A stretch of DNA of 64,000 bases from Cetorhinus maximus (lineage: Eukaryota): positions 107,136,001-107,200,000 of the forward strand of contig NC_135889.1 in assembly GCF_964194155.1 (NCBI RefSeq), given 5' to 3'. The first letter of the stretch is position 1. Each line of letters opens with the position of its first letter. The position numbers were made by a program, and so were the translations under genes. This document shows, piece after piece, positions 13,101 through 63,675 of this stretch. Below the pieces are notes generated by a model that did no database searches, had not been told where the DNA came from, and was given only the letters and a program-made list of their open reading frames with translations.

Positions 13101-13552
13101 TGGACCAAGATCAAATGAGTAGGACAGGCATTACTGCCCCAGTTGACAAAATAGCCACAGTACAGCCTGAACCAGATCAGATGGATGGGACAAATGTTTT
13201 AACCCCATTTGACAAAAAAACTGTACAGGATGAATCAGTAACTGCAGAACATTTTAAAGATACAGAGTCTGATGGAAATGAAGAAGCTTCCGAGGTGGGG
13301 TTAACCACAACAATTAATCTCCCCAAACCTATGATAACAGACTGTAATGTGGTTGAGCACATGTCAGAGCACCTCATGGAATCACCCCAAAAAACTAAAA
13401 ATGATGTCCCATTTCTGGTTGGATCAATGCACAGTCCTTCTGAAATGCAGGCATGCTGTGTGTGGTCACCCACAGCATCACCTTCTACAAGTATCCTCAA
13501 GAAAGGAATTAAACGGCCATCTGAAAATGATTCTCCTTCTCCAATGAATAAG
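10112..13552 (+). CDS. RIF1: RIF1 giant exon (intrinsically disordered region, ends with the SILK PP1-binding motif)
   Basis: tttttcag|GAT...AAG|gtaaat, 3441 bp, inside ORF 9986-13618. Motifs RRQSFITLEKFD, RYQTRRASQGL and CVWSPTASPSTSILKKG. Confidence 0.95.
12257..12937 (+). repeat. Coding tandem repeat, 30-bp unit (60-bp higher order), ~23 units, consensus SSTEQKxxD/E
   Basis: Directly visible: lines 12481 and 12541 are identical 60-mers; the protein alternates SSTGQKMVES and SSTEQKVLDD. Confidence 0.95.
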
Positions 13553-17460: not shown

Positions 17461-17772
17461 TTGGAGGCCAGTGTGAGTGCTTTATGAACTTGAATAAAGT
17501 CTGAGAAATTGGCTTTGTGTGATCCTAATATGTAATTCGCACTTTTGGCTTGTTGTATTTATTAAAATTTTAAAAAGCACACCTATCTATAACAATAAAT
17601 ACAAGCATTTGTAGTCAGCCTTTTACACAACTTTTAAAAAATCTCGGCAACACCTGAGTTATGCTGATCTTGAAATTTAGAAGCTTTGGAAAGGTTGCAT
17701 TTCTTTTATGTGCTGCTCATAAGATGAGATTTCAAATTTTCCTTTGTGTCCTACGTCATTTGTTTTCTGTAG

Positions 17773-17934
17773 ATCCGTCGCGTTTCATTTGCAGATCCAA
17801 TTCAGCGGGAAGGATTAGCAGATGACATTGATCGCCGTAGCCCTGTAGTGAGATCCCATTCTTCTTCTGGAAGTTCTCCTGGATTAAATCACTCTGCCAC
17901 AAATGGTTGCAACCGGTCCAATGTTCAATCCAAG
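17773..17934 (+). CDS. RIF1: RIF1 coding exon with RVxF PP1-docking motif
   Basis: ttctgtag|ATC...AAG|gtaagt. Encodes IRRVSFADPIQREGLADDIDRRSP. Confidence 0.95.
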
Positions 17935-18269
17935 GTAAGTTCCATTAAGTTCTCATTCAAATCACAGCTCTATAAGATAGTTGCAGATAATGAAACCACT
18001 GTGTCCCATCTTAATTCATGGATACAAAAAAGCCTAACTCTCTCTTGCCCTAATTATTTGCGGTACTTGTCTTATTAAGTTTCATCTGACATTGACCACA
18101 TGAATGCTTTTCTCACTTATTCTGTCATTTCTGAATTGCCTCCTTCGGTTGCATTGTCGGTCCTAGTTTGGAATTATTTGCACAGTGGGTTTCTGAATTC
18201 AAAGAATTTCTCTGAACAACAAGCAATAAGTTTCAACTGGTTCATTCTCAATTTGCCCTGGACCAACTT

Positions 18270-18985
18270 GTTTCGGTGGTAACACTTGGAGTTAGAAGAG
18301 CTCACATTCAAGTCCTACTTTAGCTAATATTTCAGTATAGTGTTGAGGCAGTGCTATAATGGTCACAAGTGCCATTTTAGCAATGCGAAGATGAGCTAAG
18401 GCATATCTGCTATGCAAACGGACATAAAGGATGCATGACATTATTTGAAAAGGACTAAAAACGTTCTGGTGTCCTAGCCAACATTTAGATCACTAACAAC
18501 ACCATTAAGACAATTCAGAAATATGTTATGGACTAGCCAGTAACCCATTACATTGGCTGTTTTGCATTCAAACAAAAAAATCTGAGTTGAGGGCGTTAGC
18601 CCTGTTACGGTAGTAATCTTGCTTCTGAAGCAGAAGTTGTGGATTGAAGTCCCACTGTAGCACATAATCTAGGTTGGCATTTCAGTGTAGTACTGAGGGA
18701 ATGCTGCACTGTTGGAGGCATCACCTTTCTGATGAAATGTTATATCAAGGCCCCATATGCTCTGAATAGTGTCATGGCTTCTTTTGCATCCAAAAAGGAG
18801 CAGGGGAGTTCTCCCCTGTGTCTGGCCAATACTTATCGCTCATCAGCAAAAAAAAAATTAATTCCTGCCATGTTGCCAACATTATAACACTTATTGTCCT
18901 CCAAAACTATTTGGTTATTAAATGCTTTCTGACATCCTGAGATCATGAAGGATATTATAACCAATAACCAATGCACAACTTTTTT
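18270..18985 (+). mobile_element. Two adjacent degenerate DeuSINE/SacSINE1-like SINEs
   Basis: Core cacataatctagg..cagtgtagtactgagggaatgctgcactgttggagg, with a degraded copy just upstream and another near 29540-29720. Confidence 0.55.
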
Positions 18986-19162
18986 TTCTGGTCTTGTATT
19001 TAATGCTTTCTTTCATCTTTTAATTTTGCAAATGTTTATCCTGTATGGAATTTAACATGTCACTCAGTGATCTGAGTTTTATTATTTATTTAGTATATAT
19101 CAGAGCATTGAGGTTACTGTATTTATCTTAATTCTGAGTTTCATATATTTTAATTCACTCAG

Positions 19163-19240
19163 TACAACACCACTCCAACTAAAGGTTTCCTGTCTCCAAG
19201 CACTCGCAGCTCTGGCTATAAAAGTTCAAAGAAATGTTTG
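19163..19240 (+). CDS. RIF1: RIF1 78-nt S/K cassette exon (RIF1-Long-specific exon homologue)
   Basis: cactcag|TAC...TTG|gtaagt. Symmetric phase 0, 26 aa YNTTPTKGFLSPSTRSSGYKSSKKCL. Confidence 0.9.
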
Positions 19241-19314
19241 GTAAGTTGAAGGCATTAAGGTTTATCTTGTGGTTAAGTGATGCCATGTATTATGTAAACA
19301 TTTTTTTAAAGCAA

Positions 19315-20010
19315 AATAGGGTAAGCACTGGAGATACTCAGCAGCACAGGCAGCATCTGTGAAGAGAGGAGCGTAACGTTATAGGTCGATGACATTTTTA
19401 TAACTGGGAAAAGTTAGAGATGTAATAGATTTTAAGCAGGTGAAAGCAGGGAGGCTTGAAAAAGAAAAGAGGGAAGACCTGTGATAGGGCGGAAGACAGG
19501 AGAAATTAAACGATAAAGGAGTTGGTGTGCAAGGCCAAAGGGAGTGATAGGACAAGTAAAGAAATAAAACTTGTAGCCAAAGGAGGTGTGAATGGCATTC
19601 TGCATCTGCCTTCTGAAAGCAAAACAATAAAACCAAAGCCTGCAAAGATAAAGGAAACAAAATGGGGGAAGAGGTTAAATTCTGGAATTGCTGAACTCAA
19701 TATTGAGTTCGCAAGGCTGTAAATCACCTAATTGAAAGATGAGGTGCTGTTCCCCCAGCTTGCTTTCAGCTTCATTGTAACACTGCAGGAGGCAGAAGGC
19801 TTGAGAGAAAGGTGGAGAATTAAAGTGACAAGACAACCAGAGTTCAGGGCCACTCTAATGGACTGAACGGAGGTGTCCTGCAAAGCAATCACCCAATCTG
19901 TGTTTGGTTTCCACACTGAAAAGCAGAATGCATTGTAAACAACAATTGCAGTATGCTAAATTGAAAGAAACATAAATTGATGTTTCACCTGGAAGTAGTA
20001 TTTGGGAAAA
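19315..20010 (-). mobile_element. Penelope-like element fragment (GIY-YIG C-terminus plus terminal repeat)
   Basis: - strand EQHLIFQLG-like motif. The terminal gctgga..actcagc..cagcatctgtg.agagaga motif also occurs near 7305-7480, 33845-34270 and 36710-36805. Confidence 0.6.
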
Positions 20011-20463
20011 TAATGGCCACAGAAAATCGCTTGGGTCACTTTTTTTCAGCCATAAGCTACACCAACAGTTTTATATTTGAATCTGATTTGGTCTAAACCT
20101 GCAATGTGAGTGCAGGCAGAATATGTGGAATGAGCCAGTGAACAATGATTCTAGGGATAGTTAAAAGTGGAGGATAGAAATGGCCACTTAGTCAAGTTGA
20201 TGCTTGACTTTCATTGTACCATCAAACATTTGATCATCTCGAGCTGGCAGGTTGTGCCAAAAAATTATGAATCTGAGTAAATAATTTCTTTCTTTACCAA
20301 AAATGTAGAAAATGAATGGGAAAGATGATTTCTGGATAGGGTAATTCTAATTTGTATGGTGGTATAGAGGTCAGTTGCAGTTTTGGAAAATACAATCTAC
20401 AAAATGCTGAATTGAAACATGGTACTTTTAACATATAAGTTTCTTTTTTTAAAACCCCTCAAG

Positions 20464-20579
20464 ATCTCAGAGATGAGTAAAGAATCTGGGGCAGTGTCTA
20501 CAGCTGCCGTGTATCCGGCTCTGATCAGCTGCTCTTTACCAGTAGAGACCATTCTACCCCAGCTTGCCTCTAACATGTG
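20464..20579 (+). CDS. RIF1: RIF1 coding exon (C-terminal domain)
   Basis: cctcaag|ATC...TG|gtaagt. Encodes ISEMSKES..VYPALISCSLPVETILPQLASNMW. Confidence 0.92.
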
Positions 20580-20800
20580 GTAAGTAAAGTTTGTGATGCA
20601 TTTAGTTGCCCTGCATTCTAATACGTAATGTCATTTTAAAATTTTGCTCTTGAAAATTCTAGTTTTAAAATAGGACAGTTTTACTAGGAGGGGGCCTGTA
20701 ATTAAACTTCTGTTCAATATTAAATTAACCAAGGTGATGCAGTGTAATTTACCGCCTGCTACACCTGTACTGAATGATCAAGTTTTGTTCTTCCTACTAG

Positions 20801-20954
20801 GGCCCGAGGTCTAGGCCAGCTTGTAAGAGCTAAAAACATCAAGACCATTGGTGACCTGAGCTCGCTTACAGTGGCTGAAATTAAGTTGCTTCCAATCCGT
20901 TCTCCAAAAGTCTTTGTTGTGAAAAAGGCTCTCAAAGCCTTCTATGAACAGCAG
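20801..20954 (+). CDS. RIF1: RIF1 coding exon (CII DNA-binding subdomain)
   Basis: ctactag|G...CAG|gtgagt. Encodes ARGLGQLVRAKNIKTIGDLSSLTVAEIKLLPIRSPKVFVVKKALKAFYEQQ. Confidence 0.95.
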
Positions 20955-28931: not shown

Positions 28932-28942
28932 AATAAAATAAA
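28932..28942 (+). terminator. Candidate RIF1 polyadenylation signal (overlapping AATAAA pair)
   Basis: aataaaataaa about 970 bp after the stop, followed by T/GT-rich sequence. Confidence 0.55.
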
Positions 28943-30128: not shown

Positions 30129-30134
30129 TTTATT
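30129..30134 (-). terminator. Candidate nebulin polyadenylation signal
   Basis: tttatt on + is AATAAA on -, about 690 bp downstream of the NEB stop. Confidence 0.5.
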
Positions 30135-30818
30135 TGACGCCACAGCTAGTTATCAGGTGTTGAGAAAACAGACAATACATGTACAAGTCCACCCTGAGCA
30201 AGTGAAGTAGGGAGGCTCTTAACATGTTCCTTTAACCACCTCTTTCAAAAGGGTCTCAAATTATGGAAACTAAATATGTCAGTGGCAACATGTTTTTAAA
30301 GCTCTGTTAAGGAATTTGCAAACTAACTACATATTTGTCAGGATACAGAAACCATAAGTTGTACTGCTGCAACCACTTTCAGTCATGACACGTTATGCTA
30401 TTCAACATTTTTCCTACTTCAAATGAGACCATCCAGTTTGCTTTGGGTATAACATTATGGAACACATCTCTGAATACAACTTAACAGTTCCAAAGAGTTA
30501 AAAGTTGGTTAAAATACACTGAACAGCCTAATTATTAAATGGTTTCATTATAGCAGAAATGCATGTAACGATTAGGCAGCAGTTTTTGTTTTGCACGTGT
30601 CCAAGATTTGTCATAAGTTCTGTAACTTGGTTGTAATAATAGATTTGGATGTACAATGGGAAGGAAATGGAAGATTATTGTGCTTATCCTTTTATCCCCT
30701 TAAGAAATTGAATCCCAATTGAGGAAAATCAAATGATAGGTTATGGGTTACTTGTGACTTGCATTTTTGTTTTGGAGTGGGGAGGGTGGGAAGTGCCTGT
30801 AAGGAAAATTGACCTAGC

Positions 30819-30992
30819 TTAGATGGCATCCACATAGTTAGCAGGCAGCATGCCTGTCAACCCAGTCCTTTGTACAGTACCATACATCCATCCTTCATCA
30901 ATGGACTGAACATTCATAAGGAAGTCACCATCTTTGAAAGAGACTTCATCTGCATCAGCTGCTGAATAATCATATATGGCACGGTATGTTTT
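30819..30992 (-). CDS. NEB: Nebulin last exon, SH3 domain
   Basis: ccacag|AAA...TAA. Encodes [57 protein letters not shown]; the RIF1-NEB tail-to-tail synteny supports NEB. Confidence 0.95.
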
Positions 30993-32342: not shown

Positions 32343-32449
32343 ACCAGTTGTTGATGGGTGAGAGGGAATAGATGACACGTTAGTCTGCTGTGTGGCAACA
32401 GAGGATGATCTCTGCTGTGGCAGGACAGTGGTTTTGGTTTGTTGGTAGC
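32343..32449 (-). CDS. NEB: Nebulin exon, serine-rich region
   Basis: tttcag|GC...GGT|gtaagt. Encodes YQQTKTTVLPQQRSSSVATQQTNVSSIPSHPSTTG. Confidence 0.93.
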
Positions 32450-34343: not shown

Positions 34344-34490
34344 TGGTTGGTGCCGTCTGGAAGAAGCTGTTTCCGTTGCAGTAACTAATGGTATGATCGG
34401 GTTCAGAAAGTTCCGATTTCTCATCTCCGCCACTCAGGCTCTGGGCGCTAGCGGAGCGCGAGTGCTCCCGGCTGCGGCGCTGCGCTTGAA
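34344..34490 (-). CDS. NEB: Nebulin exon, serine-rich region
   Basis: tttctag|TT...A|gttagt. Encodes QAQRRSREHSRSASAQSLSGGDEKSELSEPDH. Confidence 0.92.
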
Positions 34491-35141: not shown

Positions 35142-35234
35142 TGCTTAACATGTGCAAACTCCTGGACTGAATGTTGTCTTCAGCCGGATCATAGTCAAAG
35201 ACTGAGCCAGGGTTGGTGCGCCATACACGCAGAT
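35142..35234 (-). CDS. NEB: Nebulin exon
   Basis: ttccag|AT...A|gtaagt. Encodes LRVWRTNPGSVFDYDPAEDNIQSRSLHMLS. Confidence 0.95.
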
Positions 35235-41918: not shown

Positions 41919-42102
41919 CTGTGAGGCTCTCGCCTTCGTTTTCCACCCGGCGTCTCTGCATTTCCACGACCCGCCTTTGGATGCCACGGTAACTGATGTC
42001 ACTGAAGTCTTGCATGTTCTTCTTTACACGTTCGGTGATGGGATCGGTAACCACAGGTGTGAAGTTTCCCTTGGTCTTCTCAAAGTCTTCATGGTATTTC
42101 AC
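41919..42102 (-). CDS. NEB: Nebulin exon (last nebulin module)
   Basis: ttttaag|GTG...G|gtatgt. Encodes VKYHEDFEKTKGNFTPVVTDPITERVKKNMQDFSDISYRGIQRRVVEM. Confidence 0.95.
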
Positions 42103-44794: not shown

Positions 44795-44902
44795 CGTTGA
44801 TATGTTGCGCTGAGAATCCCGTACACGTCTCATCTCTGGTGTGTCCAGCACATAAGCCGCCCTCCCTTGCACTTGTTTACGGAAGCTGTCAGAGTATAGG
44901 AC
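44795..44902 (-). CDS. NEB: Nebulin exon (Z-disk module)
   Basis: ttacag|GTC...ACG|gtattg. Encodes VLYSDSFRKQVQGRAAYVLDTPEMRRVRDSQRNIST. Confidence 0.95.
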
Positions 44903-46467: not shown

Positions 46468-46560
46468 CGAGCTAATGTTTTCTTGATTGCGTTTAACGCG
46501 CTGCATCTCTGGTGTGTACACCACTGCGGTCCCTTTACCCAGGTTTTCTTTGTATAAGAC
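46468..46560 (-). CDS. NEB: Nebulin 93-bp Z-disk exon, TPEM/RNQEN type (single copy)
   Basis: ctgcag|GTC...TCG|gtattt. Encodes VLYKENLGKGTAVVYTPEMQRVKRNQENISS. Confidence 0.93.
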
Positions 46561-47740: not shown

Positions 47741-47833
47741 CGAGCTGATGTTCTTCTGTGTCTCTTTTACACGCTTCACCTCAGGCAGGTCAGAGATTGC
47801 AGTTCCTTTCCCAATACCTTCCTTGTACTTGAT
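47741..47833 (-). CDS. NEB: Nebulin 93-bp array exon A
   Basis: tttgtag|ATC...TCG|gtagct. Encodes IKYKEGIGKGTAISDLPEVKRVKETQKNISS. Confidence 0.9.
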
Positions 47834-49512
47834 CTACAAAGTGCGTAGATCAGAAAAGAAAAGAACAGCCTGTCAGCACACAACAAACGCAACACACGGA
47901 CCAACACAAACTGCAACAAGTTACACCAGTTCTAATAAGTTAAACTGGCGAATTAGATTATGTTATCAAATACCATTTAACTATTCTCAAAGTAATCACA
48001 AGTTATCAAAAGCACCAAGGAAAATGTAAACAAACTTTCTGAGATTCAATGTGATGTCCATATGAAATGAAACACATTTGAAATTGAAAGTTCGTTAGTT
48101 AGAAAATGGAAAGTTGGTTAGTTGAAATCAAATTTTAACCTTAGTGAAAGAGTACCATTCAAAGTTACATGTTCAGCAAAAAGATCACTGTCAATGATCA
48201 CGGCAAAATTCCTCATGCTTCCATCCCTGAAAATAATGTCGCAATCGTGCCCAGCAGTGCCCTCCAGCGCTAATCTTGGTGCAGTTTTTCCACTATTAAT
48301 GCAACTCGTTAGTATGGGGCAAGCTCCTCTTCAGGGTACATCTCTGGCTCTGATCTGTAACTGGTAACTGGAGACTCCAGCAATCGCTTGATCATGGGGC
48401 AGATGGGGATTCCCTCGGCCCATCCATGGTCATAACTAATGAAGCCAAACTGCAATAGTTTTTCTCTTCTAAGGCGCAAGCTGCTGAACTCATGATGATT
48501 TCAATGATAGGGCCCATGATTGGGTTTGTAGAGTACACAATGCCTACACTCCTTCAGTGTACCACTAATACGCAAGGTCACCCTCCAGGCTCAGGAGCAG
48601 AAACTCTTGCTTTATTGAGTCCCTGCCTCTGGTCCTAGTCTCTACTTGCCTGACAAACAGAAGACCCACCCCTTAAAAGAGAGCTGGAGAACTCCTGGAA
48701 ATGGTGGACAACCAGCGCAACCAAGTTTGGCCATTTTTTTTAAGCGGGTCCTGCCAGAGATGCAGAAGGAGATTGTGAAAACCAATATAGAACAACCTCC
48801 TTGACCGCCACCCAGATATATTGCAATGATTGCTAAAACTCATTACGTGAAATTGTATTTTTTGTTTTAGCAACTCTTTGCTTTATATTTAAAAAATGCC
48901 AGTGGCTCTAGTTTGGATGACCAGTTAAAGTAAAGTCGGCTTCTTACAATTAAAGTTAATGTGAATCACTCTGAAAATTTGAAGCTACAAATCAAAAGAA
49001 TTATGCAGGAATGTGAAACCAAACTTCAAATTCAAATAATTAAAAATCAAAGCTCTGATTTAGATTCCAAAACATGCTGCAACTGATTTTGTATTTAAAA
49101 GCCTTTAGGTTATTTGACAAGTATTTCAGATGTCATGTGCAATAAAGCTACATTGCTGTTGATTTAACTTACTAATTATGCTTTGTTATAATGAAGTCCA
49201 GGACTTCCAACATACCTACTTCATGCCTGGCATTCTTAGTTACGTCTCAAAGAAGTCATTCTCAGAGAGCCACAATCCTGAGTTAGTTCCACAAAAATCA
49301 AGAAGTTAAAACTAATTTCAAATATCTTGTGGGAAAATGGTGTTATTCATTTCAGGAGTATATGTTTCAACAATCGGGGAAACCTGTTAAAACGATATTG
49401 AGGAGTAAACTGTGAAAAGGAGGAATTGTGTGAATTGTGTTTTAGTGCTAGGAAGGGTTGGGTAGTAAGGGGGTGGATTGTGGGTTAACACAGAAATCAA
49501 GTCAACAGCTAC

Positions 49513-49605
49513 CGAGCTGATGTTCTTCTGTGTCTCCTTTACACGCCGCACCTCAGGCAGGTCAGAGATTGCAGTTCCTTGACCAACATTTTCCTTGTAT
49601 TTGAT
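49513..49605 (-). CDS. NEB: Nebulin 93-bp array exon B
   Basis: Encodes IKYKENVGQGTAISDLPEVRRVKETQKNISS; AG/GT intact. Confidence 0.9.
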
Positions 49606-50737
49606 CTACAAAGTGTGCAGATCAGGGAAGAAAAGACAAACTGTAAGCACATGACAAACAACAACAGCTTGCATTTGCATAGAACTTGAACATAATGAAA
49701 GTTCCCAGTGCCCTTCAGAGGAACAATTATCAAACAAAACTTTACACGGGGTTACATAAAACGCTAGCTAACGAAGACAATCTTAATTAAAGAGATAGGT
49801 TTTAAGGCATGTCGCAATGTTGGAAAGAGAAGTAGAGAGGCAGGGAGGTTTAGGGAGGAATTCCATGAGCTGCAGTAATACAGGACTTTATACAAATGAT
49901 GTCAAGTGAGACTGTATCCACACTAGAGATTGGATTGGCCTAGTGGATAAAGGCTTCAGCCAATCTAGCACTAACTCACACAAACCAGAAAGTAGCCTTG
50001 ATTTAATTCCCAATATTTGTTGAGTAGTAGCCATGCCAACAAATGAAGAGCGACAATTAACCTCAGCACCATTGGGACAGGGAAGGAAAAATCAACCAGG
50101 GATGCCAATGCGGATATCCATCCAGCAATTTCTGCTTCTGCAAAGTCAGGATGAATCTTCATGGTGATCCTTCCACAGTCATTGCCAACTCAAGGTCTAA
50201 GCTCCTACACCTGGTGAGATGGTGGAGGGCTGCCAGAGCATGAACACGTACTGCAGAATTTGGAAATCAACCTGGATACAAAAACCTTTAAAAATAATCC
50301 TAAAAGTTCTGATTCGATGATAATAAAAGTACAGAGCTAAATGTTGACTTTGTGGTTCTGATTCAAATTCCATCAATATTCCAAAGCCTGCTTTCCTGTT
50401 GTTTTTTTTGGAAGCTGTTTAATCCATGCTATAGATGCTGTATTCGTATTACAGTCATGGCTTCTTAATGTTGTTCTTTGTTTTCTGTCTCACTGCACAG
50501 CATCGTAAGGTCTTACGAAAAATTGCTTACGCAAGCTCTTCCCCCATCAATAAAATCTATATGTCAAAATTGACAAAACTTTATGTATAAGGCACAAAAA
50601 GGTTTCAAGAATTTGAAAAAAAAGTTACATAAAAAAAGACTAGAAAAAAAATGACATTAATTGTGTTTAGTGACAGGAAGTTTCGGACAGGGGATATCAT
50701 GAGTTTAAAAAAAAAGGGGAATCAAATTGGCAACTAC

Positions 50738-50830
50738 CGAGCTGATGTTCTTCTGTGTCTCCTTCACACGCTTCACCTCAGGCAGGTCAGAGACTGCAGT
50801 TCCTTGACCAACATTCTCCTTGTATTTGAT
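50738..50830 (-). CDS. NEB: Nebulin 93-bp array exon C
   Basis: Encodes IKYKENVGQGTAVSDLPEVKRVKETQKNISS; AG/GT intact. Confidence 0.9.
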
Positions 50831-51919
50831 CTACAAAGTGTGCAGATCAGAGAAGAAAGGACAAACTGTCAGCACATCACAAACGAAAAACAAAAGCAAC
50901 CAACATTTATACAGGACCTTTAACATAGCAAACATCCCAAGGCACTTTACAGGAACCATCATCAAACAAAATTTGACAACGAGCCACCCAAGGCAACATT
51001 AGGACAGCAGAGATAGGGTGTTAAGGAGTATCTTAAAGGAGGAAAGAGAGGTAGAAAGGCAGAGAAATGAAGGGAGGGAATTTCAGAACTACAGTAATAG
51101 GTAGACATTATACAAATGCTATGAAGCCACAGACTGCATCAAACCACATGGAATTCTCCCACAATAGCCTAGTGGGTAGAGGCATCAACCAGTCTTGCAC
51201 TAAGTCACACAAACCAGTAAGCAGCCTTTAATTCCCAGTCTGTGTTGCGATCATAGTAAACATGGCAACACGTGAAGAGCTGGCTTTGGCATCATTGGGG
51301 CTGGGAGAGAAAACTAGCCTGTGGATGGCAATGTTGGTGTCTATCCAGCAATTTCTGCTCCTGTACAGTCAGGATTAAGCTTCATAATGTTGTTCCGAGG
51401 GTTGAATAGTCTACTCATTATCTAAGCTTACAGAAGGAGGGCCACTTGGATGAGGTTGTGACAGACTGCTGAAGCATGAATCCATACGACAATGTCAATC
51501 AGCACCTTCAGCAAAGGAGGCCAGAAAGGGGGGAAATAAATTCTGTATTGCGAAAAGGGAACTGCAGGTATTGCCAATGACATTGTGGCCTGGATTTTTG
51601 CAATGAAAGAGGGCCCTTCTGTCAAAAATGGTGAAAGAAGCTGAAATCTGGAAGTTCCATCCCTGCAACACGGCACCTACTATTTTCACGGGAATGGGCC
51701 CAAGATTTGTACATACAGTTTTGCGGAAGCAACTGCCTATATACATCAGTAGCTGTCTCCGGTCATGTCTAATTTTGGTGACCCATATGTGTGAAACATG
51801 ATGTGTGCAGAATAGACCTGGTAGGAGCAGGTCTGAGCTTTGTGGAGTCCTTTGGAGAGGTGGGGTATCCTTTTGGGGAGGTAGGGAACCTCTTTGGATA
51901 TAGTTTTGGGACACAGCAG

Positions 51920-52219
51920 TTAATCATCATCATCGTCATCGACTGGGACAAAGATGTCACGTTCCTCCAGTAATGAGGCGAAGCTCTTGCTGATCTGATT
52001 GCCCATGTAGAGAAAAGGGACGACCACAACAAAGACTTTCATGAGACCAAAGGAAGTCTTGACAGGTCTGGGTAAAATGGCTCCCGATTTTGTCACCACC
52101 ACGTTTCTGAAAGAGTTGAGTTGAATCCCAGCTTTAGTTCGGGGATTCAGAAGGCCCCGGGTTACCTCAGTGCTCAGGGATCTTCCGAGTCCAAACAGAC
52201 GCCACCCGACCGCCACCAT
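51920..52219 (-). CDS. SMDT1: Intronless EMRE (essential MCU regulator) retrocopy with an intact 99-aa ORF; retrogene or young processed pseudogene
   Basis: RNVVVTKSGAILPRPVKTSFGLMKVFVVVVPFLYMGNQISKSFASLLEERDIFVPVDDDDDD aligns with recalled human EMRE RSVIVTRSGAILPKPVKMSFGLLRVFSIVIPFLYVGTLISKNFAALLEEHDIFVPEDDDDDD. Has an Arg/Leu-rich presequence-like N-terminus and no intron. Confidence 0.9.
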   Translation of the reverse strand: MVAVGWRLFGLGRSLSTEVTRGLLNPRTKAGIQLNSFRNVVVTKSGAILPRPVKTSFGLMKVFVVVVPFLYMGNQISKSFASLLEERDIFVPVDDDDDD

Positions 52220-53149
52220 ATTTATGAGGTTGTCTCAAAAGGTCAGGTGCCCTTTGGGGGAGGTCAGGTGGTGTTTTGGAAAGGTAGGTTGCCCCTTGGG
52301 ATTGTTAAAAGCATGAATGTGCATACAAAATGCATGAACTCATTAACTGTCAACCTCATTGGAACTGTCAAAAGTGTCAAAATGAAGTGTCAAAGGCAAC
52401 TGTCAAGCTGTCAAGACATTTACAACTCCTGCCCTTTAAATCCTTGAAACAAATGTCTGGAGTTTAAAAAAATCATGACTTGCTATTTCACTCTGTCTGT
52501 TGACATAAACCTGAGGGCTACCATTACTGGATTTGTGCTGCACAACCTTCCATTATCACAGTAGGATGCCTGTCATTTCAGAATATGATTGACAGCTCCA
52601 AGTGCTTATCAACTCTTTGAAGCAGGACTATGAATTCCAACGCTTGTTTTTCTAAAGGATTATGCACAAATGAAATGTTTGTTCTTATATGGGTTTATGT
52701 AATTGAAAGAAAGTAAATATAGAAAATGGGTTTTTACGAATTAGACTAATTCTTCAAAATAAAGTCTGCAATAGACACATAGAATGTCATTTTTTTTCAT
52801 TTCAGCATGGCTCCTGAGCTCTGCCCATGGTAGATACTGGGTGAGTTGACATGGTAGCTGTAAGGGCAAAAGGTGGTGGGTTGGGTGCATGGGTTTCTGT
52901 GAGTTGGCATAGGGGCTATAAAGGTCATGGGGGTATGTGGAGGGCATGGAGGAGATGAGGGGCCATGGGGATGTGTGTGGCACATAGGTAGGCATGGAGG
53001 GTATGAGGGGCCAAGGGAGCATGGGAAGTTTGAGGGGGTGTGAGGGGTGAGGGCTGGAGGGCCATTTTGTGTTTTACTGTTTTTTAAAAACTCAACACAA
53101 TGCTGGAACACAGAGGCAGGCCTTCTTCCCAGCCTGCTACTGCACCCAG

Positions 53150-54015
53150 CAGCCTCTGCAATGGCTATTGGATCATACTTACTTATTTCTATTTGCACTG
53201 TTAGTTCATCTGTTTTGTTTCAAATGCTATGTGCATTCAGACACAGAGCCTCAAGTTTTGTCCTTTTATTATTTTTGTAACCTCTACTCTTTGACTTGTG
53301 GTCTCTGTCCCTTCCTGTCATGGTGTGTTTATCATTTCCCAAATTAATACCTTCCCCTCTCATCTGTCTCTACTCTTTAATTTACCACAGCTTCCCACAT
53401 TCGATCCCTTGCCCCCACAATTTAGTTTAAAACTCTTTCTGCTTCCCTAGTTATGCCTAGATGTCTCGAGAACCCTGGCACCAGGCAGGCAACACAGCCT
53501 TCTGGACTCTCACTCTTTACTGCAGAGATCAGTGTCAATCCCCCTCACTATACTGTCCTCTACTAGCACTACATTCCTGCTTGCTCCCACCGCTTGACCG
53601 GCTTCCTATACAATGGTGCTATGGCCAGCCTGCTCATCCACCTTGCAGACCTTGCTTTCAGCCACACAGGTTGTGAGCACTTCAAACCTGTTGGACAATT
53701 GCAAAGTCTGAGGTTTCTCCACTACTGTCTCCTCAGTCCCATTACCTGTCTCACTCACAGGCACATCCACTGCTGGCCAAAACAGATGACCCTATTCTAA
53801 AAGATGTGGCTGTCTACTGGAACAAAGTGTCCAGATATTCCTCGCCCTCCCTTAGGTTGCACAATGTCTGCAGTTCAGCTTCCAAATCAATAATCCTGAT
53901 CCTGAATTCCTCAAGCTGCTTACACTTCCTGCAAACATGTTTGTCATGGATCGCCTTGGCGTCCAAAAACTCTCACATTCCACAGCTGCAACATAACACC
54001 TGTCCTGCCATTGTT
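53150..54015 (-). mobile_element. CR1 ORF1 remnant (zinc finger/leucine zipper)
   Basis: - strand reads MAGQVLCCSCGM*..HVCRKCKQLEEFRIRIIDLEAELQTL. Confidence 0.55.
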
Positions 54016-54399
54016 ACTTATGTTATTTAGTTAATTTAATCACTTTCTTAATTAACTTAGAATAATTCCTATGTATGCTACAATTTACTGTGCTTATTAA
54101 ATGTTAGTACCACTGACAACTAGAAGTTACGTGTTTCTTGACTACACAGGTATGTGTTTTAGGTGTTTAAAATTAAAATAAATTAAAGTAAAGTTTTAGT
54201 TCGATTTTATTTATAGTTCTACCATAACTCCTGTGGCCTAAGCTGTTTATTATTACACTATCCCTAACACTAAGCACTTACCGGCCAATCTATAAACTTA
54301 CAAAAGTACTATACTATTTGAAACCCTAGGAACAGAATAAACCTTAACCACTCACCAGATATTCACAAGCTAGCTTCTTCTCTAACCAATTAAACTCAC

Positions 54400-54930
54400 A
54401 AGTCAGGAATACTCTCCACTTGCCTTGATCAATGCGGCTTCAATAACACTCAAGAAGTTCAACACCACCCAGGACAAAGAAATTCATTTGATCGGCACCC
54501 CATACATCACTTTCAACATCCACTCCCTCCACCACTGACACACAATGGCAGCAGGGTGTACTACATACAAGATTCTCTGCAACTACACACCATGGCTCCT
54601 TAGACAGTAACTTCCAAACTCTTGATCTCTACCACCTTGAAAAATAAGGGCAGCAGTCGCATGGGAACACGACCACCTGCAAGTTCCCCTCCAAGCCACA
54701 CACCATCCTGACTTGGAACTATATCGCCGTTCCTTCAGTATTGCTTGGTCAAAGTCCTGGAACCCCCTTCCTAACAGCACTGTGGGCCACGCGTAGGTTC
54801 CCGCGCCAGATGGACTACAGCAGTTCAAGAATGCGGCTCACCACCACCTTCTCAAGGGCAATTACGGATGGGCAACAAATGCTGGCCTTGTCAGCAACAT
54901 ATGTATCCCATGAAACATTAAAAAAAAAAC
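54400..54930 (+). mobile_element. CR1 LINE 3' fragment with A-tail
   Basis: Homologous to 25555-26120. Confidence 0.8.
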
Positions 54931-56101
54931 TACTGAGGCTGGTAGAAAACCTCCCACCGTGTATGCCAATGTTGATGTCCATCCAGCAATTTCCGCTAAT
55001 ACGAAGTCAGGATTAAGCTTTACAGTTGAATAGCCTACCCATTATATAGCTTACAGAAGTAGAACCACTTGGCTGAGATGGTGTCAGGCTGCTGAAGGAT
55101 GAATCTATACCACAATATCAGTCAGCCCCTTCGACAAAGGAGGGCAGAAAGAGGGGAACAAAATATGTATTACATCAAACTACAAAATACAGGTCATAAA
55201 AGGGAACTGCTGGTTAGATATGCAATTAACATTTTCAGTAAATGTCCTGAAATCAGAGAGTACCTTCATTGTAAGTAATTAAATAAAGAAAGCTCATGCT
55301 GTATCCCTTTAGAACTAATCACGTTTTTTTTACTACTTTGCCTTCAAATAACTTATAGACCTAATGGAGATTGGGAATTGATAGATTGAATCTTAGTAGA
55401 AAAATTAAATATGATATTTTATCTTTAAGATGAATGTACCAAGCAACACCATTTAAATTGAATGTAACTTTATCACTAAATGGATTACAATAGTTTCAAA
55501 AAGATTTATTTATTAATAACATGTGGCTCAATGTGAATTTTTTAAAATCCTGAAGATGCTAAAAGTGAAGGACTGAGTTCCGTATCACAAATGAAATTCT
55601 GATTGGCAGATCTCAAAAATTAATCTAGATTCAAAAATTTGAAACACTAAGGTTTGAGTTAGAGATGATAAAAGTATGAGGCTAAATGTTGACTTTGAGG
55701 TTCAAAATCAAAGGCCATCATTATGTTAAAGTCTGTTTTCCTGCAGTGTTATTGAAAGCTGTGTCATTTATACTGTTGATGCTGTATTGATATTACAATC
55801 ACAGTTTTGTTATGTTGCTTTTGGTTTACTTTCTCAACGCATTGTATTAAAATGTATGACCAAAAAAAAAGCTTAACCATTAATTTTCTTCCCCCTCACA
55901 TATATGTAAATTCAAAACTGATAAAAAAAAACTTAAGTACATTTCACAAAAATGTTTCAAAAATTAGAAAAGGTTAAAATAAATTTGAAAAAAAAGGCTA
56001 GAAAAAATTGGCATTAATTGTGTTTAGTGGTAAGAGGTACTGGGTAGTAAGGGCCAGGGTGAATCATAGGTTGAGAAAAGGGGAATCAAATTGGCAACTA
56101 C

Positions 56102-56194
56102 CGAGCTGATGTTCTTCTGTGTCTCCTTCACACGCTTCACCTCAGGCAGGTCAGAAACTGCAGTTCCTTGACCAACATTTTCCTTGTATTTGAT
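56102..56194 (-). CDS. NEB: Nebulin 93-bp array exon D
   Basis: Encodes IKYKENVGQGTAVSDLPEVKRVKETQKNISS; AG/GT intact. Confidence 0.9.
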
Positions 56195-56889
56195 CTACAA
56201 AGTGTGCAGATCAGGGAGGAAAGGACAAACTGTCAGCACATCACAAACAAACAACAACAACTGGCGTTTACGTAACACCATCAACATAGTAAAACGTTCT
56301 AAGGCACTTTACAGGAGCCATCAACCAACAAACTTTGACATCATAGCACATAAGGCAACATAAGAACAGAGAAGTGATTTTAAGGGGTGGTTTAAAGGAT
56401 GAGGGAGATGCGAAGAACTGGAGAAGATTAGGGAAGGAATTCCAGAGCTACAGTCACATGTAGACTTTATATAAATGATGTCAAGCCACAGACTTCACCT
56501 CGCTACACATTTGAATCTGCTTTATTGGCCTAGCGGGTAAAGGGATCAGCCAGTCCGGTACCAATTCACACAAATCAGTAAAACAGCCTTGGTTCAAATT
56601 CCAGGTCGGTTTTGAGGAAGTAGCTATGACAAAATGTGATGAGCTATAACGAGTCTCAGCGTTCCTGGGAAGGGAAACTCGGCCGAGTATGCCAATGTTG
56701 ATGCCTATCCAGCAATTTCTTCTTCTGCAAAGCCGGGGTGAAACTTTATAGTGACGTTTCCATAGTTTAATAGCCTAACCATTATCCTAGCTTACAGAAG
56801 AAGGCCGCTTGGGTGGCATGTTGATGGGCTGCTGGAGTATGAATCTATACTACAATATCAGTCAGTACCTTCAGCAAATGAGGGCTGGT

Positions 56890-57470
56890 TGAGTACGGTC
56901 AGTACTCTGCCTATTGCAAACAACCCAAAGGGACATGCTGTTTGATATGGTCCGCCAGTCATTGGGACATATCGCTTACGTACCTGGCATCACACCGGCA
57001 CTGAAATTCATGTACCATATTACTCATTTGTGTGGTAGGCAGAACGCCTTTTTGGTTTTGCATCAGCATCCACTCGCGTTGCCACTGCACAGTAGCAGCA
57101 TGAGTCAGTTGGCTTCATCTGTTGCTCAAATTATCGAGATACTTTACCTTTTCAAGGTATTTGAGGTAGCTGGGGACTTTTCAGGTCTGAAAGTGTGGGC
57201 CACAATGCACAGCGAGCAATAATCTGATCGGGGTAGCCATTATCCCACAGGATAGCTTTGATGCGCCCTACGGCATCAAGCATGCATAGTTTGCAAATGG
57301 CATAGGCCCTATTTATGAGATTGTCGATAAGGCCAATCTTATAGCAGTGGAACTGTAGGAATCCCAATGCATATATTGAAGGTAGGCTTGCGGTAAACTG
57401 TAGTGGAAAACAAATTAGCAGATTTCTCAACTAGCAATTCAAGGAAAGGCTTTGAAAGGCTTCGATAGAG
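56890..57470 (-). mobile_element. Penelope-like retroelement fragment
   Basis: YKIGLIDNLINRAYAIC..IKAILWDNGYPDQII, the post-RT helical domain of Penelope-type elements. Confidence 0.65.
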
Positions 57471-58064
57471 TATCTCTTTCTTCAGCAGGAATCAAGTATG
57501 TATTACAGTGCATCAAATTACACGGTGCAGGCCAAGAGGGGGGGCTGGAGATTTCGCCAATGAAACTATGAATTGCAGATGTCAAAATAAATCCAGGTTT
57601 AAAAACATTCAATACTAAGTTCTGCTTGGGAGATAATAAAAGTACAGGGCTAAAATGTTAATTTTGTGATTCTGGTTCAAATTCCATCAATACCCCAAAG
57701 CCTGTTTATCTGCTATTTTTGGAAGCCGTGTAATCTGTGCTATTGATGCTGTATTCATAATACAGGTTTTCTTATGTTGCCTTGTTTTCTTTCTGAATGC
57801 ACAGCACTAAAAAAAGTCTGACAAAAAATGCTTTTGACAGCAATTTCCTTTGCCCCGATAATATATAAATTTTAAAACTGATTTTAAAAAAAGCTTTTGA
57901 GTAAATTCCACAAAATGTTTCAAGAATTAGGATAAGTTAAAAATAAACTTGAAGAAAAACGCCTTGAAAAATGACATTAACTGTGCTTATTGGCAGGAAA
58001 TGCTGGGTAGTAAGGTGTGGGATGAATCATGGGTTAAAAAAACGGAAAACAAATTAGCAGCTAC

Positions 58065-58157
58065 CGAGCTGATGTTCTTCTGAGTCTCCTTTACACGCTG
58101 CACCTCAGGCAGGTCAGAGATTGCAGTTCCTTGACCAATATTTTCCTTGTATTTGAT
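58065..58157 (-). CDS. NEB: Nebulin 93-bp array exon E
   Basis: Encodes IKYKENIGQGTAISDLPEVQRVKETQKNISS; AG/GT intact. Confidence 0.9.
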
Positions 58158-58227
58158 CTACAAAATGTGCAGACCAGGGATGAAAGTACAAACTGTAAGC
58201 ACATGACAAACAAATAACGACAGCTAT

Positions 58228-58392
58228 TATCCTGGAACACCCTCCCTAACAGCACTGCGGGTGCACCTACACCACATGGACTGCAGTGGTTCAAGAAGGC
58301 AGCTCAGCACCACCTTCTCAAGGGCAATTAAGGATGGGCAATAAATTCTGGCCTAGCCAGCGACCCTCACATCCCTTGAACGAATAAAGAAA
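58228..58392 (+). mobile_element. Short CR1 3' end inserted in one array unit
   Basis: tcctggaac..ccctaacagcactg..cttctcaagggcaatt..tgaacgaataaa. Confidence 0.8.
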
Positions 58393-59544
58393 ATACAGCA
58401 TCTTAACATATTAAAACAGCCTAAGGCATTTCACAGGAGCTAGTATCAAAAAGAACTTGACTGTGAAAAACGTAGGGCAACATTAGGACAGAAGAGGTCG
58501 GTTTTAATGAGTGACTTAAAAGAGACAACAGAAGTAGAGAGGTGGAGGTTTAGGGAGGGAATTCCAGGGCTACAGTAAAATGTAGACGTCTTACAAACAA
58601 TGTCAAGCCACAGACTGCACAAAACCACACATGGGATTCTCCCCCATTAACCAACTGAGAAAGGCATCAGCCAGTTTAGCACTCGCTCAGACAAACCAGT
58701 AAATTCCCAGTCAGTTTTGTGACAGTCGCCATGGGAATGTATGATTAAGCTATAACCGGCCTCAGCATCCCGGTGGCTGGGAGGGGGAGCTCAGCCGGGG
58801 ATGCCAATGTCGATGTCTGGCCAGCAACTTCTGCTTCTGCAAAGTCCGGATGAAGCTTTCTAGTGATGATCCCACGGGTGAACAGCCTACCCATTATCTA
58901 AACTCACAGAAGGCGGCCCACTTGGATGGCTCTTGGTGCATGTATCTATACCACAATATCAGTCAGCCCCTTCAGCAAAGGAGGGCAGAAAGTATAGATT
59001 ATATCAAACTGCACACTGCAGACCAAAAGGGGAACTGTAGGTTTCTCTCATAAAATTCTGATGTGCAGATCTCAAAATTAATCCAGATTCATAAACCTTA
59101 AATTCTGATTTAAGCTCTGATTATGAGGTAACAAAAGTGCAGGCTTTGTTAACTTTGAGATTCTGATTTAAATTCCATCAATATGCTAAAACCTGTTTAT
59201 CTGCTGTTTTTTTGGAAGCTATGTAATAAATGCTATGGATATCGTAAATTGCAATCAAAGTTTGCTTATGTTGCCTTTTGTTTACTATCTCACTCTAGTG
59301 TGTTGCACAGCCTGACAAAAATTGCTTACTCATTCATTATTTTTCACCCTGAAGAAGACATAAATGTTAACATTGATAAGAACCTTATGTATATTCCACA
59401 AAAAAAGCTTAATGAATTAAAAAATAGTGAAATAAATTTGAAAAAGGATGAGAAAAAAGTCATTAATTGTAATTGTTGGTTAAAAAAAAAATGTTGGGTG
59501 GAAGGATAACGGGTTAAAAAAAGGGGAATCAAATTGGCAACTAC

Positions 59545-59637
59545 CGAACTGATGTTCTTCTGAGTCTCCTTCACACGCTTCACCTCAGGCAGGTCAGAGA
59601 TTGCAGTTCCTTGACCAACATTTTCTTTGTATTTGAT
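59545..59637 (-). CDS. NEB: Nebulin 93-bp array exon F
   Basis: Encodes IKYKENVGQGTAISDLPEVKRVKETQKNISS; AG/GT intact. Confidence 0.9.
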
Positions 59638-60892
59638 CTACAAAGCGTGTAGATCAGGGAGGAAAGGACAAACTGTCAGCACATGACTAACAAACAACAA
59701 CAAGAACTACTGGCATTTATATAGCACCTTTATCGTAGCAAAATATCCCAAGATACTTCAGAGGAGCCATTATCAAACAAAATTTGACACCAAAGCACAT
59801 AAGACAACGTGAGGACAGAAGAGATAGATTTTAAGGTGTGTCTTAAAGGAGAAGAGGGAGCTATTGAAGCAGGGAGGGATTTCCAGAGCTACAATGGTAC
59901 ATAGACTTTATGCAAATAATGTCAAGCCACAGACTGCACCAAATGACACATTGGAATCTCCCTCATTGACCTAGTGAGTAAAGGCAACAGACAGCCTGGC
60001 CCTAATTCACACAAACTGTAGTGGCCTTAGTTTAATTCCCAGTCTGTGTTGAGTTGGAAGCCATGGCAACACTTGGAAGAAGCTACTTCCAGCTTCAGAG
60101 ACCCTGGGACGAGGATGGGAATCTCAGCCGGGAAGACCAATGTTGACGCCTATCCAGAAATTTCTGCTCCTGCAAAGTCAGGTGGAGCCTTTATAATGAT
60201 GCTCCAACAGTTGAATAGCCTACCCGTTATATAAGCTTACAGAAGTGGGGCCACTTGGGTGAGATGATGTCAGGCTGCCAAAGCATGAATCTGTAGCACA
60301 ACATCAGTCAGCCCCTTCAGCAAAGGAGGGCAGAAAATGGGGAATAATGTGTATAGTACATCAGACTACACACTGCAGGCCAAAAAGGAAGTTTCAGGTT
60401 TCTCTAATGAAATTCCGATTTGGAGATCTCAGCAATTAATCTGGATTTTAAAATCTTAGACATTAAGTTCTGGTTCAGGGATAATAAAGTACGGGGCTCA
60501 ATGTTAACTTGGAGGTTCTGATTCAAATCCCATCACTATTCTAAAGCCTGTTTATCTGCTGTTTTGTTGGAAGTTGTGTAATCTATGCTGAAAGTGTTAT
60601 CTATTGCCATCATGGTTTTATTATGTTGCTTTTTGACTACTTTCTCACAGCACAGCATTGTGAATTATGACAAAAATAGCTTGTACATTATTTTTCCCTA
60701 TAAAATATAATGTCAAAATTGATTTTTTTAAAAAGTGTGAATTCCACAAAAATTTTTTTCAAGAATTAAAGTAAAATTGAAAAAAGACAAACAAGAAATG
60801 CCATCAATTGGCGTTTGGTGGCATTGGAAATGTTGGGTAGTAAGGTGCTGTGCTGTGGGATAAAAAAAAAAGGGAATCAAATTGGTAACTAC

Positions 60893-60985
60893 CGAGCTGA
60901 TGTTCTTCTGTGTCTCCTTTACACGCTTCACCTCAGGCAGGTCAGAGATTGCAGTTCCTTGACCAACATTTTCCTTGTATTTGAT
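60893..60985 (-). CDS. NEB: Nebulin 93-bp array exon G
   Basis: Encodes IKYKENVGQGTAISDLPEVKRVKETQKNISS; AG/GT intact. Confidence 0.9.
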
Positions 60986-62197
60986 CTACAAAGCACGTAG
61001 ATCAGGGAGGAAAGGACAAACTGTAAGCACGTGACAAACAGCAACACATGAACTTTCTGCAAACAATATCCAGACACACACTGCACCAAGCTACACACTG
61101 GGTTCTCCTCCATTGGCCAAATGGGTAAATAAATGCATCTGCTTGCAGACTGTACAAACCAGCAAGTCACTGACTTTGATTCTAATTCCCTTGTACAGTA
61201 GAATACAATTGGCATGGGGTGGGAGGGCATAATTAAAATGGGATAGGGAATTTACCCACTGTTTTCCCACTCCGATCTGGCCAACAGTAATTTTAAATTG
61301 CTAGTGGCAAGGACTTCCGCCCCAAACCTGTGGGGTCCTCTTTAAGTGTACAAGTCAGGCTCCAACCACATCATCTCAGCTTAATCTAGCCTGAGTGGAT
61401 AGCCGTGATGGCTTCCCCATGAAGCCAAACCTGTGGGGAACAGCAGCAAGGGCCAGAAGAGATAAGCTTTACATATCTTTGCATATGTCAATGCTGTCCA
61501 GGAGCTAAAATCTCCCCAGGTCTTAGCAGATGAGTTTGTCGCTTGCCCTGGGCTCATTCTCAATCATCAATCCTGCTCTGAGTTAAAATTAAGGCCCCTG
61601 CTTCATTCTCAATTGAACTCCTATAGTAGGCAGAACAGCAATTGGAGACCTCAGCAGGAAGCCTCAGGTTCCTTGGGCTAGAAAAGGGAAAAAAAAAATT
61701 CAGCCTATATTCTTGCTCTCTAGAAACCTGTTCTCCATGATAAATAGCCTCTAGGTGTTTAAATCCACATGGGGAGAATGATCATGCTGGAAATGTATTG
61801 GAGGGCTATGTGTGCTGATGTACCCATATTCCAGTATAAATTGGCTCTCCTTCACCAGAAGACAGTGAACAGAATGGAAAAAAAGTATATATACACTATG
61901 TCAAACTCCACACTGCAAGCAAAAAAGGCAACTGTAGGTTAAGTATGTCATCTGTTTGTGTTTCACTTTTTGTTAAGGCAGGTGATTAAGTGGACCAGGG
62001 TTTTGTTTAAGCATTCATTTTGAACTTGACAAAGCCTTTGGTTAATTCCATAAAAAACAAAAATTAGAATATAAGTTCTAGCTAAATCAAAATAAATTAG
62101 ACTAGAGAAATTGTGTGAATTCTGTTTAGTGCAAGGGAGGTTCGGTAGTAAAGGTGAATTATGGCGTAATACAGAGGGAAATCAAATTAGCAGCTAC

Positions 62198-62290
62198 CGA
62201 GCTGATGTTCTTCTGTGTCTCCTTTACACGCTGCACCTCAGGCAGGTCAGAGATTGCAGTTCCTTGTCCAACACTTTCCTTGTATTTGAT
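62198..62290 (-). CDS. NEB: Nebulin 93-bp array exon H
   Basis: Encodes IKYKESVGQGTAISDLPEVQRVKETQKNISS; AG/GT intact. Confidence 0.9.
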
Positions 62291-62976
62291 CTACAAAGTG
62301 TGTAGACCAGGGAGGAAAGGACAAATTGTAAATACATGACCAACAATGACAAATAGACCGAGACAAACTACATATCACAATGGATTAGACACTACAACAA
62401 ACTGCAAACATCAAACTACACAGAATAAATGAAGAACAGAACTCTTGCATTACACAGACCAAACATGCAGCCAATCAACTAAAATTAATTTTGATCTACT
62501 CCTTTTAATTCAATTAGATATTTTGCTTGTAATTATGTGAATTTTACATGTGTGACATTGGGAAAAAAACTTACTTAATCATGAACTTGGTTTTCTTACA
62601 CGGATGGGCAATTAGTTTTAATCTTTGAATGAATATGATATGAAAGCAGCATGCTTAGTCTTTAAGAATGCTTAAAGTTCCAGCTATATCCAGTATTCAC
62701 AACTATTTTATTATAATAGTCCTTATAAGTATATTCAAATGTTGTTAAGTTGGAGACATGGGGCTGGCCAGTTGATGCAAAAAAAAAATGCTTTCAATCA
62801 ATTTTTTTTTGAAGAAACCACTGATGAAGCAAACCTAAAATCTGGAAATTGAGTTTATGATTCAAGTTACAGTAGATTGATATTGAATGTTGAATCCACA
62901 CCTACAAATCTAATTTAAAAATTCCAAAATAGCATTCTGAGCTTGAGTTTCCAAATCACAATTCATTTTTGTATAA

Positions 62977-63175
62977 TTCCAAAGTGATTCCAGATTTGGA
63001 AATCCCAGAAGTGATTCCGGATTTGGAAATCCCAGAAGTGATTCCGGATTTGGAAATCCCAGAAGTGATTCCGGATTTGGAAATCCCAGAAGTGATTCCA
63101 GATTTGGAAATCCCAGAAGTGAATCGGGATTTGGAGATCCCAAAGTTGAATCTTGATTTCAAGAATCCAAAAGTG
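62977..63175 (+). repeat. 27-bp minisatellite, about 7 units
   Basis: (gtgattccggatttggaaatcccagaa)n with degenerate terminal units. Confidence 0.92.
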
Positions 63176-63582
63176 GTGCTCTAAATTTGAATCTGAAGAT
63201 CAGATTCTCCTAATATGCCTTGAAATTCACTCTGGGATTGGCTTTTAAATCTTGACTGTTTAAGTATCTCCCTCTAGTAACATTTACTGCAGGTGTATCT
63301 GTGTCCATAATAAAGCTCTTCTGATGCGTTTGTTGCCTTTTTTCATTTTCCCCACGTAGCTCTCTACCACTTCTGCAGTCTTCTGTCCTAAAAGCAGTCC
63401 TAAAAAAAAATGTCCTCACCAAAATTGTTCACATTTCAAAAATACAAATGAGTTTGAATGATTTGAAAAATGAAAAAGAAATTATAGGGAAATGGTATCA
63501 ATGAAATTTAGTTTATGACACAATGGGTTAGGTGGTCTGGGTGGATCATGAGGTGACATAAGGAAATTAAACCAGCAGCTAC

Positions 63583-63675
63583 CGAGCTGATGTTCTTCTG
63601 AGTCTCCTTTACACGCTTCACCTCAGGCAGGTCAGAGATTGCAGTTCCTTGACCAACATTTTCCTTGTATTTGAT
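63583..63675 (-). CDS. NEB: Nebulin 93-bp array exon I
   Basis: Encodes IKYKENVGQGTAISDLPEVKRVKETQKNISS; AG/GT intact. Confidence 0.9.

Follow-up and report, generated by a model that had tools for sequence, protein, structure and literature searches.

In mammals, the inclusion of exons from the Z-region of nebulin (NEB) correlates with Z-disk width. The modules of this region, the Z-repeats, were counted in 53 vertebrates by Gohlke et al. (2021, J Gen Physiol 153:e202012783, PMC7754682), who found 5-18 of them per species using the AG-93-GT rule, i.e. open exons of 93 nucleotides (nt), preceded by AG and followed by GT, that encode 31 residues and lie between the linker repeats and the last three simple repeats. 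Table 1 of that paper gives totals of 11 Z-repeats for the whale shark, 10 for the thorny skate and 8 for the elephant shark, and in the rows of its Data S2 we count 9, 8 and 6 near-identical copies of a single module in these species, respectively, where the tetrapod rows have one. Here we describe the corresponding region of the shark Cetorhinus maximus, in a window of 64,000 nt (assembly GCF_964194155.1, contig NC_135889.1, positions 107,136,001 to 107,200,000 of the forward strand). The window contains an array of nine near-identical exons, which is the Z-repeat region at the 3′ end of shark NEB.

A six-frame motif scan and exon extraction place the nine exons on the minus strand between positions 47741 and 63675. 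As an earlier note on this DNA had stated from the letters alone, all nine are open, phase 0 and flanked by AG and GT; all are 93 nt long and qualify as Z-repeats as defined by Gohlke et al. We named the copies A to I in transcript order, from the one ending at 63675 to the one ending at 47833. Any two differ at 1-11 of 93 nt (A and C at 1 nt), and 16 of the 93 positions vary. Copy I departs from the consensus given in the earlier note and reads EGIGKG; its IG signature is common to the last copy in whale shark, skate and elephant shark (Data S2, PMC7754682). Start-to-start spacings, in ascending coordinates, are 1772, 1225, 5364, 1963, 1480, 1348, 1305 and 1385 nt, in agreement with the 1.2-2.0 kb (1225-1963 nt) and single 5.4-kb gap noted earlier. 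Likewise, the predicted regeneration of SSxxYK is seen at all eight internal junctions, which read SS/IKYK (the slash marks the exon border), a variant of the SSVLYK-type junction motif that is printed also for other cartilaginous fishes (Data S2, PMC7754682). A single exon scores under the Pfam cut-off for Nebulin (E 0.002) because each exon consists of two half modules, and a PDB sequence search with one exon gave three chance-level matches (best E 0.04).

A scan by the AG-93-GT rule yields 26 open candidates, 11 of them nebulin-like. A search of the genome (3.99 Gb) returned ten candidates, of which nine are the copies in the window and the tenth is a match of 76% on a different contig (C3). 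The next exon 5′ of the array lies at 66216-66308 on the scale of the window, 2.5 kb outside it, and encodes a divergent 31-residue repeat. Since all nine near-identical matches on the same contig fall in the window and the next upstream exon is divergent, the array ends inside the window, contrary to the earlier suggestion that it may continue past it. With nine copies the array is complete, which brings the Z-repeats of the gene to 1+9+1 = 11.

The gene can be identified as NEB from its super-repeat motifs, its linker repeats and its 3′ exons, which agree with those of mouse in order and length. Upstream of the window, a stretch of 149 kb contains linker repeats and super-repeat exons, and the gene runs on beyond; the super-repeat exons carry WLKGIG, WLRGIG and WMRGIGW motifs in repeating 108/312-nt exon units, as in seven-module super-repeats. 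Linker repeats, Z-repeats, three simple repeats, a serine-rich region and a terminal SH3 domain succeed one another as in NEB, and exon lengths match the mouse NEB table (105, 105, 105, 93 ... 108, 184, 93, 147 where mouse has 153, 107, SH3; PMC7673738). The presence of super-repeats excludes nebulette (NEBL) as the identity of the window gene, and a separate nebulette-like locus exists on C3 (53440001-53490000), in which the 76% match falls as its one exon of this kind. Because that locus has single counterparts of the first two Z-repeat exons, homology shows this exon pair to predate the NEB/NEBL split. The gene, its Z-disk region and duplication together with introns had all been correctly named in the earlier note.

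Whale shark, skate and elephant shark carry the same module between the same two flanking exons (PMC7754682). The whale shark has 1+9+1 = 11 Z-repeats as here, and several Cetorhinus copies are protein-identical to whale shark copies, while the neighbouring exons are close to, but different from, the whale shark rows (PMC7754682). The array is an old trait of cartilaginous fishes, already in print at the protein level; taken as such it extends a published table by one shark, and its residual value is comparative. The parts of PMC7754682 used here give repeat counts and protein alignments and do not treat intron homology, age, gene conversion or the identity of the amplified exon. A literature search found no account of gene conversion or of the intron-level history of the array, which does not in itself show that none has been printed.

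The module labels (page heads M175 and M176 of Data S2) and the position, second among the 93-nt exons, identify the amplified exon as module M175/M176, i.e. mouse exon 151. The Z-disk exons of mouse (152-160) and human (166-177) are likewise 93-nt, phase-0 exons for 31-residue modules with SSxxYK junctions (PMC7673738, PMC7370890, PMC7109182), but the shark copies are far more uniform. Mouse too has 11 Z-repeats, arranged 1+1+9 (PMC7673738) as against 1+9+1 in the shark, in which mouse exons 152-160 have one counterpart. According to Data S2 (PMC7754682), the exons amplified are the later, TPEM-type ones in tetrapods, the second in cartilaginous fishes, and either the first or the first pair in several teleosts; this amplification of different exons in different lineages suggests that selection acts on module count and not on module identity. 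The triplicate region of human NEB is also an intragenic duplication of exons with introns, in the super-repeats (described in PMC7754682); it is, however, a highly identical, copy-number-variable segmental duplication, whereas the introns of the shark array are about 30% divergent.

The introns date the array. The five intron bodies between C and H (60985 to 49605) align end to end, as had been claimed for the same units under the letters B to G: the ten pairs give local alignment scores of 353-880 against shuffle maxima of 37-62. Over 926 columns these pairs diverge by p 0.27-0.33 (minimum 0.267; Jukes-Cantor distance 0.33-0.43), and their tree is a star with branches of 0.18-0.23. Introns A-B, B-C and H-I retain weak shared traces (scores 54-100 vs. 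40-64 for shuffles), and the intron before copy A has next to no likeness to the others (34-59 vs. 38-64). By these divergences, C to H are one old burst with nothing recent in it, and introns A-B, B-C and H-I belong to an older layer. As the shared intron bodies differ by 27-33%, the copies are old and not a fast copy-number dial; given this divergence and the star-shaped tree, the proposal of copy number being tuned as an ongoing process is not supported.

Likeness of the introns through independent transposon insertions or dispersed repeats was considered and is rejected for two C-H intron probes, both of which match inside the array only in the whole genome (6/6 and 5/5 matches). Within intron C-D, a stretch of 160 nt belongs to a dispersed repeat. 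Intron F-G, of 5.27 kb, includes an extra array-specific segment (see Table), no less and no more divergent than the other units, that is possibly the trace of a lost tenth unit whose exon is gone, which would be the simplest reading; an old out-of-register duplication is the alternative. A decayed exon in this intron was sought with a permissive blastn over 35 kb and not found: apart from the nine copies, three divergent nebulin exons were all that matched at E < 0.001. This history argues against an active copy-number dial. Intron A-B also contains a minisatellite of 27 nt and 6.4 copies (62975-63146).

Against this age, the likeness of the exons calls for explanation. Across the 36 copy pairs, the mean proportion of differing sites is 0.138 for synonymous (pS) and 0.031 for non-synonymous (pN) positions, so the protein of the copies is under strong purifying selection. 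Synonymous divergence does not grow with intron age (0.11-0.13): the 15 pairs within C-H have a pS of 0.126 and the 12 pairs of A/B with C-H, whose introns can hardly be aligned, one of 0.108; copy I alone stands off (0.21, 8 pairs). Compared with its nebulette counterpart, an array exon has a pS of 0.57-0.68. A similar contrast was found in six upstream super-repeat units, where the 312-nt exons have a pS of 0.10-0.28 in all 15 pairs, and the adjacent 108-nt exons, just before them, of 0.64-0.90 in 12 of 15 pairs (0.09-0.29 in the other three); two more 312-nt exons were excluded, one for a miscalled boundary and one for want of a paired 108-nt exon. The 312-nt exons (153.5-209.9 kb on the scale of the window, about 107.29-107.35 Mb of the same contig) are 84-95% alike, although their introns are mostly unalignable, and in one pair the first 125 nt are identical between unalignable flanks, with a pS of 0.85 in the neighbouring exon pair. 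Exon-limited gene conversion is likely in the 312-nt exons, where its signal is stronger than in the Z-repeat array. For the array, the independence of pS from intron age and the homogenised 312-nt exons beside saturated 108-nt exons suggest conversion that takes in the exon with its splice-site flanks and nothing beyond, to which we lean slightly. Such homogenisation in the super-repeats would mislead any dating of super-repeat duplications from protein identity.

Two other features were noted among the super-repeats, namely: a more recent super-repeat duplication at 196.2-202.6 kb on the scale of the window, with 88% identity over 1.3 kb including an intron and two exons identical in protein, and an intronic minisatellite of about 1.8 kb at 186.7-188.5 kb (period 34/68 nt, about 95% identity).

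With regard to splicing, the combination of weak donors and conserved flanks points to the copies being cassette exons of variable inclusion in shark muscle, which we regard as quite probable. None of the nine array donors has G at +5, compared with 39 of 43 hand-picked upstream NEB exons, and array donors score -2.2 to -4.0 where the leave-one-out minimum of that set is -0.2. The flanks are conserved from about -60 to +25: in copies D-H, positions -60 to -3 are invariant at 43 of 58 sites as against 41% of intron-body columns (P 4e-7), and four-fold sites are invariant at 10 of 12 where 5.0 are expected (P 0.004). Conserved flanks are a described property of cassette exons (PMC2077895). Variable inclusion of nebulin exons is described for mouse exons 152-160, at 6-87% in extensor digitorum longus (EDL; PMC7673738), with fast muscle dropping later exons in long reads (PMC7370890), and for zebrafish exons 121-129 (PMC11153343); human exons 166-177 are reported to be alternative (PMC7109182). 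In addition, 9 of 22 database proteins, among the matches listed, pass from linker repeats straight to the 108-nt exon without any 31-residue repeat; these nine are mostly ray-finned fish gene models and none is cartilaginous. Two protein searches for shark isoforms (73 and 84 matches of at most 2000 residues) found no cartilaginous-fish protein with the array, and none of the 73 proteins of the first contains more than one DLPEV motif; this is weak evidence.

Taken together, we consider the following account probable. The M175/M176 exon, single in tetrapods and in nebulette, was tandemly duplicated with its introns in two layers, both long ago: an older one giving A, B, the ancestor of C-H, and I, and then one burst giving C to H. 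Because the exons are 93 nt long and phase 0, with module borders inside them, every combination of copies keeps the reading frame and restores an SSxxYK actin-binding motif at each of its junctions. Fibres would then differ in how many actin-binding modules they include near the Z-disk, something that tetrapods achieve with another group of exons. Mutually exclusive use would be pointless, since the products are near-identical. The likeness of the copies is kept by strong purifying selection on the protein, probably along with conversion limited to the exon and splice flanks.

Several points weigh against parts of this account. The argument for variable splicing in the shark is drawn from its genome sequence. 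The conserved flank coincides in part with the pyrimidine tract, which should be constrained in any case. Weak donors are also found in three single-copy neighbours (the 108-nt exon and two exons 5′ of the array, scores -3.0 to -4.7), two of which correspond to mouse exons with a percent spliced in (PSI) of 100 (PMC7673738). Mouse exon 151 itself has a PSI of 100 in diaphragm, EDL and soleus (supplementary table of PMC7673738), so that mammalian alternative splicing, which the earlier note had extended to the array, does not carry over to the amplified exon by orthology. One short-contig, mammalian-type protein keeps the exon 151 counterpart and skips all later Z-repeats. The last three points would fit nine constitutive copies that form a fixed eight-module C-terminal extension (about 44 nm at 5.5 nm per module), any tuning between fibre types being left to other exons. 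We consider this unlikely: sharks have one TPEM-type exon only and so little other tuning material, human exon 166, the first of the alternative group, is the amplified exon by our own count back from exon 178, and many fish models have no Z-repeats at all. As for the Z-disk itself, each nebulin module binds one actin over about 5.5 nm, yet according to Gohlke et al. (PMC7754682) regulation of Z-disk width has not been directly tested, and a review places M176-M182 possibly outside the Z-disk proper (PMC7109182).

The remaining alternatives concern the likeness and number of the copies. Selection on protein and splicing signals could suffice without gene conversion, an explanation that differs from ours in the cause of the likeness only and that we rate as a serious but less probable one. 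Data S2 (PMC7754682) shows the human form of the module to be only slightly different, conserved flanks are known for cassette exons, and in the array a mosaic test gave no sign of conversion: of 153 site pairs, 72 are incompatible, a value reached by 28.6% of 500 tree simulations (P 0.29). An adjacency test gave P 0.20; with 18 informative sites both tests have low power. Selection alone sits less well with a pS that is flat with intron age in exons whose synonymous sites are far diverged from nebulette, or with the 312-nt pair described above. Residue 20 is Q in 7/9 whale shark and 7/8 skate copies and K in 6/9 copies here and 6/6 of the elephant shark (PMC7754682), a within-species pattern that independent expansions would also give. 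A young array, still expanding and contracting with copy number varying between individuals, would accommodate the different lineage counts (6, 8 and 9; PMC7754682) and the possible lost unit in intron F-G, but recent unequal crossing-over would leave near-identical units, no pair among the five homologous introns approaches this, and the whale shark too has nine copies (PMC7754682); we think it very improbable. A false duplication in the assembly, suggested by the near-identity of the exons only, can be dismissed for practical purposes, since the introns are 27-33% divergent with private insertions and the same array exists in three other species (PMC7754682); the earlier note had likewise judged it improbable from the introns.

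A broader proposition, which we advance tentatively and hold to be less likely than not, is that a Z-disk splicing dial arose in cartilaginous fishes separately from that of tetrapods, through amplification of the exon that is single and constitutive in mice, and that old copies, in the array as in the 312-nt exons, are kept interchangeable by exon-confined conversion, with isoforms that differ almost only in module number. If so, nature would have provided a way to test whether Z-disk width is set by module number and nothing else. In fishes, red and white muscle are anatomically separate. Since the copies are also nearly identical, shark muscle would offer a clean system for the idea that nebulin's Z-repeat count helps to set Z-disk width.

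Table. Features of the window, with positions in window coordinates.
Feature	Position	Strand	Remarks
Z-repeat exon, copy A	63583..63675	-	first in transcript order
Copy B	62198..62290	-	N6S, K20Q
Copy C	60893..60985	-	opens the six-copy block C-H with homologous introns
Copy D	59545..59637	-	exon extraction
Copy E	58065..58157	-	V7I, K20Q
Copy F	56102..56194	-	I13V
Copy G	50738..50830	-	I13V
Copy H	49513..49605	-	K20R
Copy I	47741..47833	-	most divergent, 7-11 nt from the other copies
Intron F-G, 5.27 kb	50831..56101	-	5′ part of intron, second array-specific mid-intron segment, dispersed repeats, 3′ part of intron
Extra array-specific intron segment	54957..55215	-	69-77% alike to its four long counterparts, the other copy in intron F-G being at 77%
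Dispersed repeat in intron F-G	52240..53160	.	11,270 first-look candidates, 40 scored; long matches 70-81%
Last Z-repeat exon	46468..46560	-	one TPEM-type repeat of 31 residues; corresponds to mouse exons 152-160 as a group
108-nt exon, M182/M183	44795..44902	-	mouse exon 161, 108 nt
184-nt exon, M183/M184	41919..42102	-	93% identity with nebulin-like of Chiloscyllium plagiosum; mouse exon 162, also 184 nt
93-nt exon, M185	35142..35234	-	mouse exon 163
Serine-rich exon 1, 147 nt	34344..34490	-	153 nt in mouse; boundaries deduced from phase
Serine-rich exon 2, 107 nt	32343..32449	-	mouse 107
Last exon	30130..30992	-	SH3 domain (Pfam SH3_9, E 5e-15), stop at 30819, 3′ untranslated region to AATAAA at about 30134
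RIF1-like gene	9977..20950	+	tail-to-tail with NEB; SILK motif in the large exon, RVSF at the start of the next

The 3′ end of NEB converges on a second gene, with AATAAA/ATTAAA signals on the minus strand at 30134, 28976, 28964 and 28894 (interval 28890-30134). We take this neighbour to be RIF1-like from its motifs and from the human NEB-RIF1 neighbourhood; its large plus-strand exon has no Pfam match, and Atlas scores of 0.76 were uninformative. The same exon contains a coding tandem repeat (12260-12934, plus strand) with a 60-nt unit in 11.2 copies, whose 30-nt subunit encodes acidic repeats of 10 residues. Finally, two inverted pairs (1641-2789 with 23821-25018, and 25343-25994 with 41012-41606) consist of fragments 79-91% alike, with reverse-transcriptase or endonuclease-like reading frames, and are presumably LINE-like.

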